Part shown: in pieces, positions 4,279-51,280 of the stretch
How the letters are laid out: every line of letters starts with the position of its first letter
Numbering within the stretch: the stretch's first letter is position 1
Assembly: GCA_001599295.1 (NCBI GenBank)
Contig: BCGN01000007.1
Span: 832,470 to 896,469, forward strand
Length of the DNA: 64,000 bases
Direction of reading: 5' to 3'
DNA from: Sporopachydermia quercuum
Taxonomy: Eukaryota
Translations under genes and position numbers: made by a program
Notes under the pieces: model-generated
Database searches by the model: none
What the model was told of the DNA's origin: nothing
Seen by the model: the letters and a program-made list of their open reading frames with translations, nothing else

Positions 4279-4908
4279 TTCTGTGGATTATAATGCTACT
4301 ATTATATATGTAGTTCGTACCTCATAGATACACACTCATCTATAGTAATTTCGAGCAGTTTTTAAATGAGGATTCGTGACTTGAAGCTGTATTTCTCTTG
4401 CTGTGTTTTCATTTGTTTATCCTGGTTAATTGCTTTTTCCTANTTATGTGAGAGATAACATTTATTTGACAATGAGACAAGTAAAAAATGGTTGGCTGGT
4501 AATCAAGGGGGAATTCTTACCATTGAGATGAGGTTAGGTCTGAAACTAGACCCTGTAGATAGATCTCCGAGAATAAAATGAGAGTCTAGACCTTTATGGA
4601 TATGACAAGTGAGGAGTCTGCAATTGTTACCCTATCGCGTGGATTAGTTTTATTATGACAGGTTCACGGGGGTGTTCGGGAGATGATAATATCAGTAGTG
4701 TCAAGCTTCTGGAGATATTGCCGAGATGAGGCAACAGGTAATAGGGATAACATCGGACTTCGGTATCGACATGTTGGTATTATTACTATGCCTGATATAA
4801 TGTATCAGATATGGACAAGCAGGAAATATTTATCAGAACTGTTTCATGAACTGATTCTGTTCAAGAGGNTAGGCTAGTTGTATTTCTTATTAGAGGTTGT
4901 AGTTCCAA

Positions 4909-5756
4909 ATGGCAGGAACCAGTTTCAGAGACCAATTGTCTCGAATCACAGATTCACGCACACCTGGTATACCTTCAGAGTCAGCAAACACATCATTCTT
5001 ATCATCATGGAAAACATCGCTACAGAGCGTGAATCCTTTCACGAACGGTAGAATTCAACTGCCAACTACAGAGCCTGTTGGAAATAGTGCAAATCCTGTT
5101 GAGAACGTACCTGCTGCAGAAGAACCTGAATGGTTTACTTGTAAGTATATGTTGATGGGTTGATATTCTGTCACAACCAATCTGATGTACTAACGAACGA
5201 TCAACTGCAGTATCGCGATGGGACAGATTATTGGTTTTTGGCATCTGTATTGCTGGCTCGCTAGCCTGCTTTTTCATTGGCTTTCTCTTATTTCCTGTAC
5301 TTGCAATAAAACCAAGAAAGTTTGTTTTAATATGGACTTTAGGAGGTTTACTTTTTGTTATATCTTTCGGTGTATTGCAAGGACCAGTCAATTATCTACA
5401 ACATTTGGTTTCACCTCAAAGACTTCCATTTAGCTTGTTTTTCTTTGGTTCAAGCATCATGACGTTGATTGCATCTTTAGTGGTATGTTTTTTGTTTACT
5501 GGTCCGTGAATGATGTTCAGATTAAGGGCCTAAAAAAAGAAAGAAATGACTGTCAATTTCGTCGGTTTATTTTTCCTTGCATATTTCTAACTATCATTAT
5601 TAGTTAAAATCAACAATATTGACTATATTGTTCGGTGTTTTAGAAGTAATATCCGTTATCTATTATACGGTGTCATATTTCCCTATGGGTACTCAGAGCN
5701 TCCGGTTTGCTTCAAGGATCGGTACAAGGCAAGTTACGTCATGGATTAATTCTTGA
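4909..5756 (+). CDS. SFT2: Sft2/Got1-family Golgi membrane protein; exons 4909-5140, 5211-5482, 5604-5756
   Basis: Intron 1 GTAAGT(5141)..TACTAAC(5188)..CAG(5210); intron 2 GTATGT(5483)..TTCTAAC(5585)..TAG(5603). Splicing yields WFTLSRWDRLLVFG...KPRKFVLIWTLG...RLPFS...LKSTILT...SYFPMG. Confidence 0.93.
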
Positions 5757-5911
5757 GTACTGTGATTGCAAGTTTGAAAGAAATCGAGATTAGAAGGTAG
5801 AGATCGTATTAAGAAGTACGGGATACGACATAACGTGTAAATACTTGCTGATTAATAGAATGATATGTTATTGCTTATTAACGTGCCCGAGGGATCAAGG
5901 AAGGCGCATAA

Positions 5912-6871: not shown

Positions 6872-7524
6872 ATGACTTCTTCTGCTACCTGTGTGTTTTG
6901 CAAAATCATCAAGGGTATGTATATATACATTTTACAAAGGTGGGGTTAAAAGGATTGGAAATGGAAGTCAGAAGTATAAGCTGGTTGACTCAATTATCAC
7001 CATGTACTGATACTAGTGGATTTAATAGTTACTGCATTATGATCAAGGACGCCCATAATTACGCTCACATCCTATTTATTTCTCTGCAAATAACTAACTT
7101 AGCAATGTTAGGTGAAATTCCCTCATTCAAACTCTATGAAACAGCGAAGTCTTACGCTTTCTTAGATATCTCACCAACTGCCACAGGTCATGCTCTAGTT
7201 ATTCCTAAGTACCATGGTGCCAAACTTCACAACATCCCTGATGACTATTTAGCCGACATCCTTCCTGTAGCTAAGAAGATTGCCCTGGTATCAGATGTTG
7301 GAATAGATAAAGAAGACGAAACCGATTTGTCTGGCCCTGGTTACAACATTCTACAAAACAACGCAGCTATTGCTCACCAAGTTGTTCCTCATGTCCATTT
7401 CCATTTCATGCCTAAGAGAGATGAAGAAACTGGTTTAGTTGTTGGATGGCCTCAACCGGGAAGCGACATGGACAAGTTGAAAGCTTTACATGCTGAACTT
7501 GTCGAGAAAATCAGTAAATTGTGA
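6872..7524 (+). CDS. HNT1: HIT-family adenosine monophosphoramidase Hnt1; exons 6872-6914, 7112-7524
   Basis: MTSSATCVFCKIIKG|EIPSFKL after removing GTATGT(6915)..AACTAAC(7092)..TAG(7111); GHALVIPKYHGAKLH and histidine triad HQVVPHVHFH. Confidence 0.95.
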
Positions 7525-10410: not shown

Positions 10411-13400
10411 ATGGATAATAGATTCGATGAAATAAATAAACTGGAATTATCAACTAATTATAAAGACCACCATCATGATTACAATTCCTCGAACGACCAT
10501 ATAGCAGGAATCTCCTACTACACACATTTATTCAATCCAGGAACTTTCAATGGTGTTTCTACGGGTGCTCATGAGCATTCTACTGCAGGAGTTTCTACCA
10601 ATGTGTCTGTATCTTTACCAGCCCAGCAGCTCTCTAATTCTAGCACTAATCCGTTCATGATGCAGTCTATATCCACTGTTCCAGTTCCCGTGGGCGTTCC
10701 AGTTCCAGTCCCAGTCCCAGTTCCAGTGCATAGTATGCAGCCTTATTACGCATATTCGCAGCCTATTCTTCACAAGGCTCCTGCAAGGAAAGTGAAAAAG
10801 CAGTATAAACCAAGAAAGCTTGATAAAGAAAGCATTTCCAGAAGAACAGAAGCTTCAAAAACGCTAGGAATATCAGGCAAAGGATCAGGCAAAGGATCAG
10901 GCAAAGGATCAGGCAAAGGATCAGGCAAAGGATCGGGCAGTTTATTCTACCATTCAAGCTCACCAGATGATCTTTTTGACCCCTCAAATTCAATAGGCTC
11001 TCTTTCTACTTCCCTCTCCCTTATTTCTCTTCCGAAACATATTCTATTCAACATCCTTTCACACCCATCTCTTCGCCTTATTGACTATATCTCCTTATTA
11101 TATTCATCTCAGCATCTTAGGACTGTCGTCCTTGAATATTTAAGGTATCATTTGTTCTCCAATACATATCCAGGGATCAACTACGACAAGCTGAGCTCTA
11201 ATCAAAAGCAAGAGCTTGAAGAAGAGTTCAAGGCTCACTACGATATTCACAAGAGAAGGAAAGCTACTAAGAAGAAGTTTGATAAAACGCTTGAATCTGA
11301 TATCATATACTCTGAGCATTCAATGAAGGATCTGGGAACCATTAGCAATAATTATAATAATATCAGGAACAACAACAATAGTATTTCCAGTAGCAGCAGT
11401 ACTAATACCATTAGTAATAATAGCAAGAATACTGATACTGGTGCCTGTCTCAATACTAGTACTGTTTCTGCTGCTGGTAGCAATAACAGTTATCCATTTA
11501 CTGCTGATTCTAACGAAATTAAAGCTATGAGACTATTGAACAGAATTCTGTTCGAATCTCCTTCTCCACACAGTCTTTTCACGGCTCTCCAACACGATGA
11601 GCCTTCATTTTCGCTCATTTCAAAGTTGGAGATATACAATCCTTTGTCAATTGATTTCCTGTTTTTACTAGCAAACCAATGCAGCCAATTAACAGAACTC
11701 TACTTGAGTTTTGGTCAATCGTTGATGTTATTTTTGCTTAACGAAGAAAACGGTGGAGCCATTGATGATTCCATGTTCCATACTAGTGATAATGACAATG
11801 AGAATATTGACAATATTAATAATATCAGTATCAATAATACAACAAGCATAGTCGATTCTATTGACAACAATACTAGTAATAATTCGAGTACNAATAATAA
11901 TATCAATACTGTTGATAGCATTTACTCCACTACAAATGCTTCTGGTACCTCTGGAAAAGCACACAACCCACAATCATCACTATCAACATCGATATCAGAT
12001 AATCGACCAAAACTATCTTCATCAACAGCACATTCAGGACTTTTTGGATTCCAATTTCTACTCTATCTTGACTCAATTCAAGCATCAAAACCTTTGTCCT
12101 ATTACTCAGTGGAATTTCTACAGGAACTCTACCCTTCAAAAGCTCCAACATCCTTTCAAGACTTACCCCCGCTTCCAAAAACCGTTCGAACGTTCCGTTT
12201 ACCATTTTTAACACATTTGAAGTTTGCTAGAAGCTCTGGATTGTATGAAGTGTTGAATGAGAGTTTTTTGATGGGCCTGCTTAATGGTTGTAAAGATAAC
12301 CTGACATACTTGGATATTCGTGAATGGGTGCTTGATAATTACGAGAAACCTTTCGAAAATACTTTTTATGCAACTCTGGAGGCTCTCAAAAGTCTCCAAA
12401 CGCTGATTTTTGTAGATACTGTGAATCTTAACTTGAAATACGTGTTTTTGGGCACAGAAAAACTAACTACCTTGCACTCATTAGTACTAGGAGGAAATAC
12501 TACGTACACAGCAGACAACCTGAGAAATGGGACTTTCCAGTTGGATTCCTTTTACTTCAATAATGTCAGCAGGTCTAAGGCTATTAAACTATGGAGGACG
12601 GAAACAGAGGAACAATCAGGATTACTGGAAGAACACACAAAAGCAGGACAGCTGTGCTTCAATCGGTTTTTCAAAGCTGTGGCGCGAAATCCAAGGATGT
12701 TCAGTTTTGTATTGAAAGTACTAGGAAGATTACGCAGGCTTTATATCTGGAAAGCAGTCAATTTGAAAGTTGAGACCGTTGTAGAGCTTTTGCCTTACTG
12801 CTGTCGGTTACAAGAGCTGGAGATGATGATGTGTGGCATCAGTGAAGAAGAGACTAATAGTAAGTCTGAAATAGAAACAAATATTACAGCAAGCTCTACC
12901 GGAGCATCGAATTCAGAATTATCTCCAACAGCTATAACTCCTTCTTCAACCATATCTGATTATGACATTTCTGATATATCTGTTGTGAGTATATTTGAAG
13001 CCTGTCCAAGGTTAACGAGGCTAAGAATGAGATTCTTTGGTTATGAAGTGAGCAGCGGCCATATTCAAAGGATCAGACATTCTGGTTTCATAAAGACGAG
13101 CAAAACCATCCAATTTGAAGTAGAAAATAGTGACGGCATAGTTGATGGAACAGGAGTAAGTAATGATGAGTCTATCAGTAATAATATCGGTGGTAGTAAT
13201 GGCTCCGGTACCGGAATTACCACGCGTGGTAAATCTGGGAAACGAGTAAGTTTAGGAGATTTGTTCTTATCTAGCACAGAATCTGCAACCGTAAATTCTA
13301 CTATCCCTTCGACTGATAGTCCTCCTGTGATTATTGAGAGAATGAGATCAAAACAACCATATGTATTTTCCATACGGTTTCGTGGGTTTAGATCCAGATC

Positions 13401-13563
13401 ACTTTTCAACCAGTTAATCCAATCGCAAGCTGGTGAAAATATAAACAGGAAAGATAAGTTAGGCTACTGGCTAACGAAGAGACAAGAATGGAATCCTTTC
13501 TTGAAGATCGTTAGTTATAGAGAGAACGATGATGTTGAATTTTTAGCATCTACGTTTAGATAA
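10411..13563 (+). CDS. 1050-aa putative F-box / LRR-like protein with N/S-rich low-complexity inserts
   Basis: Long ORF; F-box-like LISLPKHILFNILSHPSLRLIDYISLLYSSQHLR; LRR-like units CSQLTELYLS, NLTYLDI, SLQTLIF, LRRLYIW, CCRLQELEM, CPRLTRLRM. Confidence 0.6.
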   Translation: MDNRFDEINKLELSTNYKDHHHDYNSSNDHIAGISYYTHLFNPGTFNGVSTGAHEHSTAGVSTNVSVSLPAQQLSNSSTNPFMMQSISTVPVPVGVPVPVPVPVPVHSMQPYYAYSQPILHKAPARKVKKQYKPRKLDKESISRRTEASKTLGISGKGSGKGSGKGSGKGSGKGSGSLFYHSSSPDDLFDPSNSIGSLSTSLSLISLPKHILFNILSHPSLRLIDYISLLYSSQHLRTVVLEYLRYHLFSNTYPGINYDKLSSNQKQELEEEFKAHYDIHKRRKATKKKFDKTLESDIIYSEHSMKDLGTISNNYNNIRNNNNSISSSSSTNTISNNSKNTDTGACLNTSTVSAAGSNNSYPFTADSNEIKAMRLLNRILFESPSPHSLFTALQHDEPSFSLISKLEIYNPLSIDFLFLLANQCSQLTELYLSFGQSLMLFLLNEENGGAIDDSMFHTSDNDNENIDNINNISINNTTSIVDSIDNNTSNNSSXNNNINTVDSIYSTTNASGTSGKAHNPQSSLSTSISDNRPKLSSSTAHSGLFGFQFLLYLDSIQASKPLSYYSVEFLQELYPSKAPTSFQDLPPLPKTVRTFRLPFLTHLKFARSSGLYEVLNESFLMGLLNGCKDNLTYLDIREWVLDNYEKPFENTFYATLEALKSLQTLIFVDTVNLNLKYVFLGTEKLTTLHSLVLGGNTTYTADNLRNGTFQLDSFYFNNVSRSKAIKLWRTETEEQSGLLEEHTKAGQLCFNRFFKAVARNPRMFSFVLKVLGRLRRLYIWKAVNLKVETVVELLPYCCRLQELEMMMCGISEEETNSKSEIETNITASSTGASNSELSPTAITPSSTISDYDISDISVVSIFEACPRLTRLRMRFFGYEVSSGHIQRIRHSGFIKTSKTIQFEVENSDGIVDGTGVSNDESISNNIGGSNGSGTGITTRGKSGKRVSLGDLFLSSTESATVNSTIPSTDSPPVIIERMRSKQPYVFSIRFRGFRSRSLFNQLIQSQAGENINRKDKLGYWLTKRQEWNPFLKIVSYRENDDVEFLASTFR
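10872..10939 (+). repeat. 12-bp coding minisatellite (ATCAGGCAAAGG) x5 plus partial, encoding (SGKG)n
   Basis: Five identical units seen directly. Confidence 0.95.
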
Positions 13564-14086: not shown

Positions 14087-15253
14087 TCACATTCGAATAT
14101 CAACCCTTATCGACTCATGGAAAGACTGACGAAGATTGTAAGCCTTTTCATGCTTATTAACCAAATTTAATGGTCTGAAAGTGAATGAGTCGTTTTCTAT
14201 ATTATTCTTCGAGCTGTAAACCTGCGGTGGAAGCTGCTGTTGATACTTATACTGATATTTCTCGCCAGGAGGAATATGATTTTCTGAGTCCACTGTTGTC
14301 GTAGTATTGACTGAACCGTAAGATGAGATAGTAGATTGAGAGTCCGAAGACACCAACGACGGCATAGAAGGCACCGAAGAGTTTGAGAAGTTTCGAGGTG
14401 GCTGTGGAAGAATAGGTAAGGATGGCTTTCTTTTTGATAGAATAGGAGAAGCTAGTTCTTCGGGGATAGGAGCGACAGCTAATGATGAGAATGATCGATA
14501 GGATGACGCAATAGGACCTCTAGTAGGGATAGGATTAGTAATAGTCGTATTACTGTTGTTATTATTACTTTCTCTTAGCTTTGGTAACGTTAATGATGAT
14601 GTAGATTGTTTGATTGTCTTNCACTGTTGCTGCTGTTGCTGAACAGAGCTAGGTAGATTTCGCTTGATGGTTTCGTTCTTCTTGATCTTCAATTGTTGTT
14701 TGATTGGAATAATAAAGAAACTCAAGGCATCAACCAGCTCAGTATTNGTTACTTTTAGGTTCCAGTTCAATAAAAACAATAGTTGACGTTCCATCAAATT
14801 AATCTCGTGAATTGAGAATAACCCATCAGTATACTTACACCAATGCTTGTTCATTGGTGAGCTATCATTCAGATTTTTAGCTGACAGTATCAAACAAGCA
14901 AGGAAAATACGATGATATGTGCATTTCATACCTTTCGCTTGTGGCGACAATCTTTTCCTCAATCGAATGAGATACACAATTGTAGTCATCAGTGTAGGAG
15001 TTTGGACATTAGAGTATCTGATCAATGCTTTAATAAAGCTTTTCAACGATACGGTATCATCATCTGATAGCTTTTCGATTGGAGATGCTGGTGGTGAAGG
15101 ATAGGATGTATTGGTATTAGTTTTCCTATTATCGGAACCATCGTCAATTCTTATAACTGATTTGGCTGTAGCAACTAACATATCTACCATATCATTGCTC
15201 ACAGGAGTTCTGACGAAAGCNTTCAATGCTTCCTTATCTAATGCTGATATCAT
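14087..15253 (-). CDS. PCL2: Pho85 cyclin of the Pcl1/Pcl2 subfamily
   Basis: Cyclin box [18 protein letters not shown]...[25 protein letters not shown]...[17 protein letters not shown]; tandem downstream of VCX1 as for S. cerevisiae VCX1/PCL2 (YDL128W/YDL127W). PCL1 vs PCL2/PCL9 is decided by synteny only. Confidence 0.8.
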
Positions 15254-16490
15254 TTTGAGAAAGTGAAGAGTATTAGTATTGATTATCGTAAGTTGAAAAT
15301 TGGTTTGAATCAGTTATCTGTTGTTTCTATGCAAATATTATCAAAAGTCTTAAAGGTCTTCATTTGCTATAGTAGGGTAGCTCTCTGTTTGATTCAATGC
15401 TGTATTTCGATTCGTTTGATTTTATCAAACTTATTTAAAAGCTCAATAAAACAGTCAGAATGCTTGGTATCTAGATATAACGTATAAAAAAGGTGAATCA
15501 AAAGCTGTCAAGCTGCACTTCCAAAATAGAAAATGCGTAGATGGGTGGTAATATTACACNTCTATTNGATGCAACTTGCAGTCTATAGAAAGAATGCTTG
15601 CGATGCAATAATGATTGAATGCTAGGCTGCTTAAATTAATTGTCGTTTGATGTTGGCAACATATAGATAGCCAGAATACATAGCTAGAATAAANGAGAAG
15701 TTAGGAAGTTTTTGAAAGAAAGGGAAGAAAAAGATTAGTTAGCAGTTCAAAGGTATATATCAACAGTTCAAGATGACAAGGAGGAAGGTGAAGAAGTGAG
15801 AAAAGAAAACAACAAGAGAGAGANGTTAAATCTTTAACAAGCAGGACAAGTACTTCTCCAAGTTTGGTAATTATTCATAATGTTAAATAGTTTGTTTCAC
15901 TAAAGAAACACGTCTTCAGAATGGAATGGGAACGCAATGAGAATGAGAATGAGAANTACAATGAAAAGAGTAAGTATGGTTGATGGTGGGTCAGGTACTA
16001 ATCGCCTAATGAGGAATAAATGTATTAAACCTAAACCGTGGTTTAAGTAGCCATTAACTAAAACGGTATTTTCTAAATTCGAGTAAAATCTTACTAACTT
16101 TTATAGAGATTTCTGCTGGAGAGAGTAGGGAATATAGTATGTAAAAGTGCTGGATAAGCGGGTTCAAGGCGAGTTTTCATGAATAGAAGAAGTTTTTCGA
16201 AATTGAGTGCGATAAACCTTAATAAGGTTTAGTTAAAGCCAATCAAAGTTAATCAGGATGTCAAGAGCAAGAGTGTAAGGGGTTTCTGGATCGAAATACT
16301 AGTAGATTATAGTCAATAAAACACAAAGTAAAAGCAGTAGACAATTACTTAATTTGCATCTCTTATTTTCATTTTTCACGTAATATACTAACCTATTTCA
16401 AGTGTATGTATGTACTCTATATCATTTTGCTCAAAATAACAATATTATTTCATTCCTTCCTCATGCATGATATTCTCCTTTCGTTGATTT

Positions 16491-16877
16491 CACGCGCCGT
16501 CATAATGAACCTGTTTTCATGTTTTCAAAAGAGTACCACAATTTCAATTTACTATTCCAATCCAATACCAGCTTGAAATACCAGACTAAGAGATTGCTGT
16601 AATAGCTGATAATTATCATCTCTTGAAAAATTTCCATTGCTCGACGCGTTCAAATTTTCCTGTTTAAGAATCATGCTTAAATGGCTGGCTAGTTAAATTA
16701 GATTTTAGTAGAAAATTTCATCTAAAGGCTGGTGAAAACCACTACCTTTTATTTAAGGTCTGCATTATAATATTACAGTTTGCACTAATTCCTTTGAAAC
16801 GCGAAAGAATCTTAAACGTTATTATTTTAGGAAGGAGAATCGATAAACGTTATTTCCTTTAATGCAGCTTTTTCGTG
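16491..16877. promoter_or_regulatory. Cluster of MCB/SCB-like G1/S elements upstream of the cyclin gene
   Basis: CACGCG 16491, ACGCGT 16644-16649, CGCGAAA 16800-16806, TTTCGTG (reverse of CACGAAA) 16871-16877 in otherwise CpG-poor DNA. Confidence 0.5.
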
Positions 16878-18362
16878 TCAGCTTTTTGATGGTTTAATGA
16901 AAAATTAGTATACGTTTCGTAGATAAATGATTCAAACGATTATTAATACAGCTTTTCAATATAAGAGAAGCTTGGAGTCTTGTGGTAACCACACAGGACT
17001 AATTTGTAGAGAAGACTCAATTTCAAGCATTCATTGCAGTAAAATCGACTGCCCCACCAGCTGTAATAATCAGCCCAGTATCTAAATATTCTGCTAAGGA
17101 TGTTTGCTGGTTGGTTAGTGGTTTTTGATGAATGTTACCGTATATTAAACTAGCAATTTGACACTTATTGTTTGACTGCTATTGCTTTTCTGGGTAATCA
17201 CATATCGAATAAATTGGTTTTCATTTTATATTTTTTCTGTATCGATAGTTATTCAGGATGACGGTAGCCTCACACTTTCTTCAAATAATACTTAGAATTG
17301 CTAAATAGCTGGTCCGTTATGTCAATCTGGAATATAGCTAGGATCACTCGACATTTGACATTTTGATATGACAGCTTGCTTTAATTACATGCCTTGTCTA
17401 GTAATAATTGGTTGACAGGTTATTATTATTTTATTTTAGTTTGTTTTCATAGTGTCACATTTCGTCACTGACATGGTACACTAGAAGTATCATCACAAGC
17501 GAACAACAGCCATACGGTGAGAATGATCAATGAAAAGCAAGCTTCTTTTGCAGAACCAAAGACAAACAATGAGACCAAACTTTTTAATAGAAAAGTGCAA
17601 AATAGATAAGCTTTGATAAATTTTGTTTTAAAATTTACCTATGGAATCTTTCATACTTGTATGATAAGCATATGTGCCAACTGGTATGTTGAATAGNAGG
17701 CTTNTTGATATTTATCTTATCAATTGGCTGTTATGGGGCCTAATTTAATAGCTTACAAATAAANTGTTTCTAAATAGTATCATAGAATACTATGAAGCTT
17801 CTCATATTCACATAAAATTTTCTAATAGAAGTAGCATCCATTAGTAATGGCTGTGTATTTCACTCATTTACAGTATCTATAGAACAATCGACATAGTAAC
17901 AATGACTATGATGAATCAGAAGATATTACTACCATTCATAGGAATAGATCGAAAGAATCAATAGATTAAGACATCGTTAAACTATTATTCCGATTCTACG
18001 ATTCCGGTGATGCTGACACTCATTCAATTCGTTATATGTAACTCAGTCTATAACTCTAATACACCTTCGAGAACAGGGAAGTATGCAGGGTCGGGTCCTT
18101 TCCTGATGGAAATGAGATCTCAAAATGCTACATATTTATACCTGAATGCTAAATTCCTACCATAAGAATAGTGCCATTATACTTATCCTTGTTTTTAATC
18201 AGACGGTAGTATAATACTACTATACATGTGGTCCATCTGTCGCTCTGAACTTTCAGATCCATGTCTTACTCTTATTCAATTTCACAATACACATTCCATA
18301 TTAATTTCGCTAAATATTTCGCATACCATATGTTTTAAAACTACATATAACTCCATCCGTCC

Positions 18363-19565
18363 TTAAACTGAAGTCTCAGGATAATAGTATAAGGCAATTG
18401 CAATGATAATATAAGTACCAATCAACATTGCACCCTCTAGCCAATTTGATTCACCATCCAAAATCAAATAATTGCAAATGAAAACAGAAACAAATAAAAC
18501 GGCTGTTTCAAATGTTGAGAAAAATAAACTCATTGGTTCATCCACAATCCAACCAAGGATTACCAAGAATGGAGTTAAGAATAAGGCAATTTGCATCGAA
18601 GAACCAATTGATACTCCGATTGCAAGATCCATCTTGTCTTTCATAGCAACTAGAACAGCAGTTACATGCTCAGCAGCATTTCCAACAATTGGAATCAAAA
18701 TCAAACCGATAAATGTCTTAGATAACGTGGTTTTCGCTACAACGTCATCAATAGATCCTACCAAATATTCTGCACATACAGCAACAATAATAGTAATCAC
18801 CAGTAGTAATACAAGGGATCTTGGTACGGACAAATGACATTCAGGTTCAGAGAGACTTTCACCGTCGTTAGCGGCTACTTCGCTTTCAGTAGCCTCAAAA
18901 ATTGATGCATGTGTTTTAAGCTGGAAATAAAGGTATAAGACATAGATGACTAATAGAACAATTGCGGTACCTCTTGATAGATCTAAAATCTTCGTGTCAC
19001 CATCACCACTTGCTGATTTTGGAATTGATGCATGGAAAGCAGCAGGAATAAGCAAACTGGAACAAGAAACTGCCATCAAGGAGCTCATTGTTTGGGCAAT
19101 CGTTTGATTGAAATGTTGTTGGAGACGATTATAACCACCCGCTATAAAACAGCAGCCGAGAACTAATAAAAGGTTTGATAGAATGGAACCAAGCATTGAT
19201 GCTTGGACAATTCTAATCTCACCTCTCATTAAAGCAACAATTGATACAATTAGTTCAACGGCATTTCCGAAAGTTGCATTCAATAATCCACCAATGGTTT
19301 CTCCTACATGAACAGAAATTTCTTCAGTTGCAAACGATAGCAGTGATGCTAATGGTATGATAGACACGAAGTTCAGTATGAATGTTAGGTTTGCTCCCCA
19401 CTGCAAGTAGCCAGAGAGAATACCAAATGGAACGAACAAAAGAAATACGTTTATGTAGGAACTGAAAAGAATTTCTTTCAACCCTACGGCCTTCGATTCA
19501 AATACTACCAAGCTGGTGACCCTTCTTCTGGGCATTAGCGGGCTTCTTTCTGATGAGAATGACAT
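18363..19565 (-). CDS. VCX1: Vacuolar Ca2+/H+ exchanger
   Basis: CAX alpha repeats [16 protein letters not shown] and [18 protein letters not shown] 19565 gives [11 protein letters not shown] with an acidic-dileucine-like sorting motif. Confidence 0.93.
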
Positions 19566-29070: not shown

Positions 29071-29157
29071 TCGGCAATAGTTTAGTGGCTAGAATTTCCG
29101 CCTGTCAGAACGATGTTCAGCGCGCGGGGGACCGGGGTTCAATTCCCCGTTGCCGAG
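29071..29157 (+). tRNA. tRNA-Asp(GTC) with 15-nt intron (29108-29122)
   Basis: Acceptor stem TCGGCAA/TTGCCGA, D arm GTTT..GAAT, anticodon stem TCCGC/GCGGG with CT-GTC-A (anticodon 29104-29106), T arm CGGGG TTCAATT CCCCG, discriminator G, then an oligo-T Pol III terminator. Confidence 0.95.
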
Positions 29158-37113: not shown

Positions 37114-37317
37114 CCACATTTTTTCTACTCCCATAAACTTATTGTGTTTACTACATCGCTATCGCCACTTCATCAAAACAATAATCATTGTCTTAAATAT
37201 CAGATCAATTCCAACGTGAACAATAACTTTTTAAACCTATCATTGTATTATTTACCTACCATACGTTTACTAACAGAAACGACATTTATTTTCATTTTGT
37301 TGTATATTCTAATCACG

Positions 37318-39172: not shown

Positions 39173-39777
39173 TCAATACTTCTCAACAAGTTTCTTAAAC
39201 TCTTGAACTTCATCCCAACAAACCAACACTTTTTCATTCTTTTTCAGGCATTCCAATACTTTTTCCTTGGCTGCTAAAACTCCAGATTCAGGTGCAATGC
39301 TCTTGGGACCATTTGACAATTTGTCTTTCAATTGGCTCACTAACTCACTCAGTCCACTGCTGGTTAGTGCGTTCTCATCATCTGTTTTCAATACCAATTT
39401 TTCCTTCTGGGCGGCTAATTTGGTTTCTTCTTCATTCAGTAGACGTGACAATTTTTCGGAGACCTTATCGTTTATGTATTTCTCGGTATATTGTAATCTG
39501 GTGTAATCAGACTATTCATAGTTAGTATCACTTATAGTTCATGTAGATGTCTCATGAAGTATTCCACTTTGAGGACTGCAATACACACAAAAATAGGAAC
39601 CACTGCAGCTTTCGCGTTTGAATTACCAAGAGAAGTTCAAATCACTTTAATAGTTTTGCTTTTCATCATAATACATACCTCTTTGCTTTTCTCCAGATCA
39701 GAGACTAGCTTCTGTGATAGTTTCACGTCCTCTGGGACGAAAACTTTGTTATCTGTTTTTGATGCACTTGAACCCAT
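39173..39777 (-). CDS. MIC19: MICOS subunit Mic19 (DUF1690), 145 aa; exons 39777-39679, 39511-39173
   Basis: Minus-strand intron GTATGT(39678)..TACTAAC(39527-39521)..TAG(39512); MGSSAS myristoylation-type N-terminus, SDYTRLQYTEKYI, C-terminal CLKKN...CWDEVQEFKKLV; convergent with UBP6 as in YFR010W/YFR011C. Confidence 0.9.
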
Positions 39778-50476: not shown

Positions 50477-51280
50477 ATGTCTCGGAACATTGCCCCTCAT
50501 CAACAGGGGCCGAACTGGAGAAACACGGTCTCCAGTGAGGAAAGAAGACGGTTTATATTGCTATTGTATGTATTTCGATATCGCATCTTGTTGTTTCGTG
50601 GTATTCCTTTATGTCTTGATGGTTGAATGGTTATGGAAATGGGCTTGTGGCTTGAGAGATAAGGTTTGAGGTGATTTTCAATATGCATGATCATCCATAC
50701 AAAATAAGATTTTGTATTGGGATCGTGCATGAAGATGTATAAGGAGTGCATAATCTCGGAGAATAGTGCATGAATATCGCATGATATATGCATAAAAGCT
50801 GTGTGGTAGATGCATAATTTCTGCATTGTGGAGAATGAGCTTATAAATCCTAACACCAGAGTTACTACGGGCATCGGGAAGATCTTCTACAGTAACCAAG
50901 AACAAGTNTTTTAACTCATTCATATTAATCGATCTTCAAATTACTAACAGATATGTTTTAGTGCAAACGCTTTGAATCCTAACCCTNCGGCTGACATGCA
51001 ATTAGATCAAGAAAAAACTAAGAATGCAGAAAAGCTTGAAAACTTTGCCTACACCGTTGCCGGCTCTAAAGTAAGTATCTATATCTATTCACACCCGTGG
51101 AGCGTGTTTTCTTAACGAAATATAGTCATGTATATAATGGTGTTCTAACAAATGTTCCAGGAGGAGTATTTCAACGTTTGCCGACGGAAGATAATGGAAA
51201 TACGAGGCAGTTCCATGAACCGCAACCAACAAGCGATGAACCCAGGTCAGCAACCACAACAACAAACCCAACAGCAGTCT

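Follow-up and report, generated by a model that had tools for sequence, protein, structure and literature searches.

Two tandem sets of intron-like signals in the spacer upstream of a Pho85-type cyclin gene of Sporopachydermia quercuum and their probable origin by chance

In the long spacer upstream of a cyclin gene of Sporopachydermia quercuum, two complete sets of intron signals follow one another on the plus strand and, once spliced out, would leave an open frame of 70 codons. With a confidence somewhat better than even, we read these sets as unselected splice-like motifs that arose by chance and that are spliced, at most, in the way known from Saccharomyces protointrons. It is most likely that no conserved gene underlies them and that the open 70-aa frame is an accident of T-rich DNA. 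The window, by which we mean the whole stretch of DNA analysed, is 64,000 nt long, has a GC content of 38% and resembles a piece of budding-yeast chromosome. It contains 76 isolated Ns, with a density of 0.98 per kb within genes and 1.53 per kb between genes; the pattern would fit heterozygous or ambiguous base calls that were masked, rather than gaps.

The spacer is AT-rich, 3.1 kb in length (15254-18362) and bordered by the cyclin gene on one side and by the 3' end of a VCX1-like gene on the other. The candidate unit is divergent from the cyclin and begins some 700 nt away from the ATG of the cyclin. The features of the locus, in window coordinates, are the following:

14087-15253, minus strand: Pho85-type (Pcl1/2/9-like) cyclin gene (Pfam Cyclin_N 1.8e-16, Cyclin 3.8e-13)
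15754-15760, alike on both strands: TATATAT, read from the sequence
15961-15969, plus strand: coding part of putative exon 1, ATG AAA AGA (sequence and translation)
15970-16106, plus strand: putative intron A, 137 nt (GTAAGT at 15970, TACTAAC at 16092, TAG ending at 16106)
16107-16136, plus strand: putative exon 2, 30 nt, open in the 70-aa frame
16137-16402, plus strand: putative intron B, 266 nt (GTATGT at 16137, TACTAAC at 16386, AAG ending at 16402)
16403-16576, plus strand: putative exon 3, 57 open codons and a stop (no homologue in the searches given below; codon make-up not gene-like)
16492-16877: motifs that we take to be MCB/SCB-like (ACGCG at 16492, ACGCGT at 16644, CGCGAAA at 16800, TTTCGTG at 16871)
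18363-19565, minus strand: VCX1-like vacuolar Ca2+/H+ exchanger gene (Pfam Na_Ca_ex 3.4e-47; homologues named Vcx1)

The relatives of the cyclin bear the source names PHO85 cyclin-1/-9, PCL2 or Pcl1p. A neighbouring ORF of 1050 aa (10411-13563, plus strand), which adjoins the cyclin gene, has no Pfam family and contains a perfect 12-nt tandem repeat (10872-10939).

The two signal sets had been proposed in a first-pass annotation as a cryptic unit encoding either a membrane microprotein or a spliced lncRNA, and every coordinate claimed for them proved correct in the sequence. The ATG at 15961 has an A at -3 as described, and joining the exons by their coordinates reproduced exactly the 70-aa frame, with both introns in phase 0. 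From branch A to AG, intron A measures 9 nt and intron B 11 nt. Upstream, further ATGs in frame (15937, 15943 and 15949) lengthen the frame to 78 aa; the ATG at 15921, out of frame and in a strong context (A at -3, G at +4), opens a different spliced ORF of 48 aa, and further short ORFs begin at 15773 and 15880. The extra GTATGT at 16404 and 16408, pointed out earlier as a possible sign of a microexon, are also present. The spacer has no plus-strand CTAAC beyond 16388, so these two donors have no canonical partner, and additional plus-strand introns downstream were rejected on the same ground. GTAnGT occurs six times on the plus strand of the spacer and never on the minus strand; two of the six copies overlap within one GTATGTATGT run.

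Six introns verified in four genes of the window served as the local standard for intron signals. They are listed here with the evidence for each:

5141-5210 and 5483-5603, plus strand: introns of an SFT2-like gene (exon 2 matches Got1/Sft2, 1.4e-23)
6915-7111, plus strand: intron of an HNT1-like gene (frame continuity; HIT domain)
39678-39512, minus strand: intron of a MIC19/DUF1690 gene (DUF1690, 7.6e-21)
50566-50961 and 51071-51160, plus strand: 5' introns of MED15 (frame continuity)

The SFT2-like gene region extends over 4900-5760 (plus strand), the HNT1-like gene over 6873-7524 (plus strand) and the MIC19/DUF1690 gene over 39173-39777 (minus strand). The MED15 (Gal11-like) gene matches its family with Med15_fungi at 1.5e-16 and starts at 50477 instead of at the long-ORF ATG at 51152; its small 5' exons read like what we presume to be the N-terminal KIX region, and its branch sites are TACTAAC in the first intron and TTCTAAC in the second. 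Among the six introns, the donors are GTAAGT (two) and GTATGT (four), the branch sites are TACTAAC (three), TTCTAAC (two) and AACTAAC (one), and the branch A lies 10-17 nt from the AG. The earlier statement that the candidate signals look like those of the real introns of the window therefore stands: donors and branch site are the same, and the spacings of 9 and 11 nt compare with 10-17 nt, the value of 9 falling just below the range. Judged on these motifs, the candidate signals are as good as the real ones, and splicing would be plausible given transcription of the plus strand.

The two genes of the window with two introns each offer the closest comparison. The SFT2-like gene and MED15 share with the candidate the GTAAGT and GTATGT donors, an identical or near-identical branch site and a short distance from branch to AG. 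Their exons, in contrast, have family matches or gene-like codon use, whereas those of the candidate have neither, and their internal exons measure 109 and 272 nt, respectively, against 30 nt in the candidate. In all, four genes of the window are split (MED15, SFT2, HNT1 and MIC19), as counted from 17 long ORFs plus the SFT2-like and MIC19 genes. In the account given in PMC5499181, split genes make up 3-5% in Saccharomycetaceae, 6-7% in the CTG clade, 10-15% in methylotrophs and more in some basal lineages, and the distance from branch to 3' splice site is described as often short in budding yeasts. The genome is at the intron-richer end for a budding yeast, and small multi-intron genes are plausible in it, which counts against a chance origin of the candidate. 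The genes of the window thus hold more introns than ORF scanning implies, and they can be used as a local standard for intron signals. The window also contains a class II tRNA of 87 nt (29071-29157, plus strand) with the anticodon CAG, which ARAGORN assigns to Leu on the anticodon alone; following the description of CUN decoding in PMC5499181, this anticodon points away from Saccharomycetaceae.

The next question is how often such signals arise by chance. Perfect TACTAAC had been called otherwise rare in the window, which needs qualifying: the two strands together hold 10 copies of the motif, 300 order-2 Markov shuffles gave 7.35 +/- 2.69, and it is not in excess. Three copies are located in verified introns, three in ORFs and four elsewhere (16092, 16386, 37268 and 55818). 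These four compare with 5.03 expected in simulated intergenic DNA, an expectation somewhat inflated because the DNA used to train the model included real introns. The copies at 37268 and 55818 are intergenic and on the plus strand, one of them 50 nt ahead of the UBP6 ATG, and there is no GTAWGT donor within 1 kb of either; they are due either to chance or to 5'UTR introns with unusual donors.

When a strict full set was defined as a donor, a TACTAAC and a nearby AG, chance produced 2.80 +/- 1.71 sets per window in the shuffles and 1.38 per intergenic equivalent in the simulations. Since 1.4-2.8 sets are expected by chance, two unexplained sets are ordinary, and only their adjacency is unusual. 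Of the 300 order-2 Markov windows, 5 contained tandem strict sets; the 2000 simulations gave a rate of 0.0095 per intergenic equivalent, and 607,797 nt of 80 metagenome loci contained none. By chance, the tandem arrangement is uncommon, not extreme.

The rest of the picture has to be added to this figure. At least 57 open codons follow 3.5% of the intergenic positions of the window, and at least 10 follow 51% of them. By arithmetic, the whole picture is expected by chance about 3e-5 times per window if taken strictly, and about 6.5e-4 times if any frame or isoform is accepted. This low joint chance speaks against pure chance. Three observations likewise count against the chance reading: all six motifs are full consensus with spacing like that of the verified introns, both introns are in phase 0 with the frame staying open, and the strand asymmetry of GTAnGT is 6 to 0. 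In a newborn gene or transcript, too, both sets would have had to arise by chance, so that their rarity argues mainly for an old and selected unit, and such a unit is the very thing that the remaining tests fail to find.

Coding potential was judged by a codon log-odds score, for which 15 long ORFs of the window were the training set and its intergenic DNA the contrast. Exon 3 scored -0.20 per codon, whereas 57-codon chunks of real genes, membrane proteins included, scored 0.229 +/- 0.127 and never below -0.067 (15 training ORFs). Among the 35 intergenic ORFs of 45-75 aa, exon 3 ranked 32nd. With a synonymous-only score, which separates coding from non-coding DNA weakly in this genome, it came among the lowest 7% when compared with 206 real chunks and at percentile 27 when compared with 157 open segments of non-coding DNA. 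Its composition is 39% T and 10% G, and G occupies the first codon position in 9% of codons, against 29% in genes. Part of the peptide is hydrophobic, its Kyte-Doolittle means over 19 residues reaching 1.9. The first-pass annotation had cautioned that AT-rich DNA easily gives hydrophobic ORFs; with 39% T and 10% G in exon 3, its peptide is the hydrophobic product that T-rich DNA yields. The exon-3 peptide was compared with 1.84 billion representatives of any length, and no homologue reached E <= 0.001; it also had no word-sharing candidate, and Pfam gave no family for it at E <= 1. Its Atlas recognition was 1028, well below the 2300 attained by known families, and the best Atlas score was 0.85, a level that shuffled proteins attain a third of the time.

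These results bear on the proposal of a lineage-specific gene or proto-gene, born from T-rich non-coding DNA, for a membrane microprotein of 70-78 aa starting at one of the ATGs between 15937 and 15961. The frame remains open for 70 codons across both junctions, in a genome region where so few intergenic positions (the 3.5% given above) reach 57 or more; the hydrophobic stretch of exon 3 would suit a membrane peptide, and emerging membrane proteins have been described as originating from T-rich intergenic DNA (PMC7005711). Against it stand a codon score beneath that of every gene chunk tested, the low synonymous-only score and the lack of homologues, family or Atlas lead in the searches above. 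Moreover, the ATGs at 15773, 15880 and 15921 would capture scanning ribosomes unless transcription began at about 15927-15936, and a de novo gene still requires that both intron sets originated by chance. The microprotein half of the earlier interpretation thus found no backing and met some counter-evidence, including the strong out-of-frame ATG upstream; it appears disfavoured, and we regard such a gene as distinctly unlikely.

No other coding-like segment was found in the spacer. It had been described as ORF-less, and its longest ORF starting with ATG is indeed at most 56 aa. The best open segment of the spacer scores at most 9.6 bits by coding likeness, and the top Pfam match among 11 spacer segments (E 0.0046, 17.1 bits) is under its cut-off of 27; a hidden multi-exon gene was rejected on these two results. 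A local duplication or mobile element was also discarded, the region 15900-16600 belonging to no repeat family.

Multi-intron snoRNA host genes occur in Candida and other yeasts, and the ORF-poor architecture with two introns is typical of such hosts, so a non-coding host gene whose introns would each contain a snoRNA or another structured RNA was considered. The scan of both introns for snoRNAs proposed beforehand was negative on all counts. At gathering scores, Rfam gave one tRNA and nothing else in the whole window; at E <= 10 it gave three weak matches in the spacer (E 4.2-8.2), none overlapping 15961-16576. The box D motif CTGA and the box C motif TGATGA are absent throughout 15900-16600, which excludes a box C/D snoRNA there. 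The folding of the introns did not exceed that of shuffled sequences (z -0.34 for A and +1.47 for B). An intronic snoRNA host gene was rejected on these three grounds, with the box C/D type largely refuted and a novel H/ACA RNA formally possible; overall, we give a host gene very little credence.

Telomerase RNAs whose 3' end is made by spliceosomal cleavage carry a U-rich Sm site directly before the 5' splice site of a long non-coding RNA. A 3' end of this type was rejected as well: purine-rich AAAAGA and AATATA precede the donors, with no AU(4-6)G-like site, and the distance of only about 700 nt from the cyclin ATG to donor A was noted against this reading.

A functional spliced non-coding RNA requires no coding signal and was the other half of the earlier interpretation. 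Such an RNA would start near 15800-15950, divergently from the core promoter of the cyclin, and would run through the motifs at 16492-16877, damping or timing the cyclin by transcriptional interference. The improbability of tandem consensus signals by chance (p about 0.01-0.017) favours it, as does the position of the unit, which has TATATAT on one side and the motif cluster, into which it points, on the other. TATATAT is the only TATA-like element between the candidate unit and the cyclin ATG, and any assignment of it to one strand would be an inference. The motif cluster is unusually distant from the cyclin ATG (1.24-1.62 kb upstream), which leaves room for the unit; on the other hand, it is thin, with about three sites where roughly one is expected by arithmetic. 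The tests described above found neither a structured nor a known RNA, and to our knowledge hardly any two-intron lncRNAs that lack snoRNAs have been described from budding yeasts. An intron in the 5'UTR of the cyclin itself was also sought and discarded: TCCTAAC, a pyrimidine tract and TAG are found near 15697-15675 on the minus strand, but they have no canonical donor, and the minus strand of the whole spacer lacks both GTAWGT and GTGAGT.

The relatives at hand for a test of conservation are distant. VCX1 relatives are at most 70% identical in the collections and 65% in metagenome contigs, and cyclin relatives at most 57% over about half of the protein. A metagenome scan with the cyclin gave 592 pattern matches and no confirmed relative. 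With VCX1, 80 loci were obtained, three of which also encode the cyclin and two of which (L018 and L001) keep the order VCX1 then cyclin, with spacers of 2.4 and 1.7 kb. Neither of the two, whose cyclins are 47-49% identical, carries a donor-branch-acceptor set on the strand opposite to the cyclin, even with relaxed patterns, and their spacers could not be aligned with ours (best blastn E 0.13). The conservation of splice signals in the VCX1-cyclin interval, suggested beforehand as a check, was not found in either of these distant loci. This absence would be weak counter-evidence to an old conserved unit; it also weighs against the spliced lncRNA, a similar unit being absent from both syntenic but distant loci. 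Taken together, we hold the functional spliced RNA to be unlikely. As a separate observation, the region 11674-12241 of L001, a yeast contig, has two ACGCGT about 1.1 kb upstream of the cyclin ATG and, between this pair and the ATG, GTAAGT..ACCTAAC..AG sets on the cyclin strand, a possible 5'UTR intron.

The chance-born reading, which we prefer, can be put as a sequence of steps. Divergent firing is common among yeast promoters. The cyclin promoter may fire divergently and give rise to a plus-strand transcript, which would hold two copies each of the consensus 5' splice site, branch site and 3' splice site. That transcript would then probably be spliced as Saccharomyces protointrons are, with no product being required. 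The case of greater interest, a young lineage-specific two-intron unit in the control region of a G1 cyclin, efficiently spliced and acting through transcription across the MCB/SCB-like elements or through a membrane peptide of 70-78 aa, we consider a quite improbable one. The weight that remains goes to something unrecognised.

A real unit would be a rare example, within a budding-yeast cell-cycle promoter, of two introns in a unit that is either non-coding or newborn and coding, and it would bear on the de novo origin of introns and genes and on the control of G1 cyclins by lncRNAs. Were a newborn unit to prove true, a budding yeast would show gene birth de novo together with two new introns. 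Under the chance-born reading, full-consensus splice signals can occur in AT-rich yeast spacers even in tandem and with an open frame, and annotating such finds first requires evidence from RNA or from close relatives.

Comparison with known systems places the candidate among several precedents. SRG1-SER3 and IRT1-IME1 of S. cerevisiae are regulatory lncRNAs that overlap promoters, are unspliced and run towards the gene they regulate. With the lncRNA reading they have in common transcription across the upstream activating region of a neighbour; they differ in that the candidate is predicted to be spliced twice and runs away from the cyclin ORF. Emerging membrane proto-genes are reportedly single-exon ORFs with evidence of translation, whereas the candidate would require two introns and is predicted from sequence. 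Thymine-rich DNA is the described origin of such proto-genes (Vakirlis et al., 2020, PMC7005711), and the candidate resembles them in its frame with 39% T and its hydrophobic peptide, rich in Ile, Leu and Phe and without homologues in the searches above. In Saccharomyces, more than 150 intron-like sites that are non-conserved and rarely spliced, some of them in non-coding RNAs, have been described as protointrons (Talkish et al., 2019, PMC6726248). As presented in that report, what defines a protointron is splicing that has been observed and is rare, and its sites are less constrained, while the candidate has full-consensus signals in tandem and is predicted from sequence. Both are intron-like, lie outside known genes and have no understood role according to the same description, and the location of the candidate is ORF-poor and may be non-conserved.
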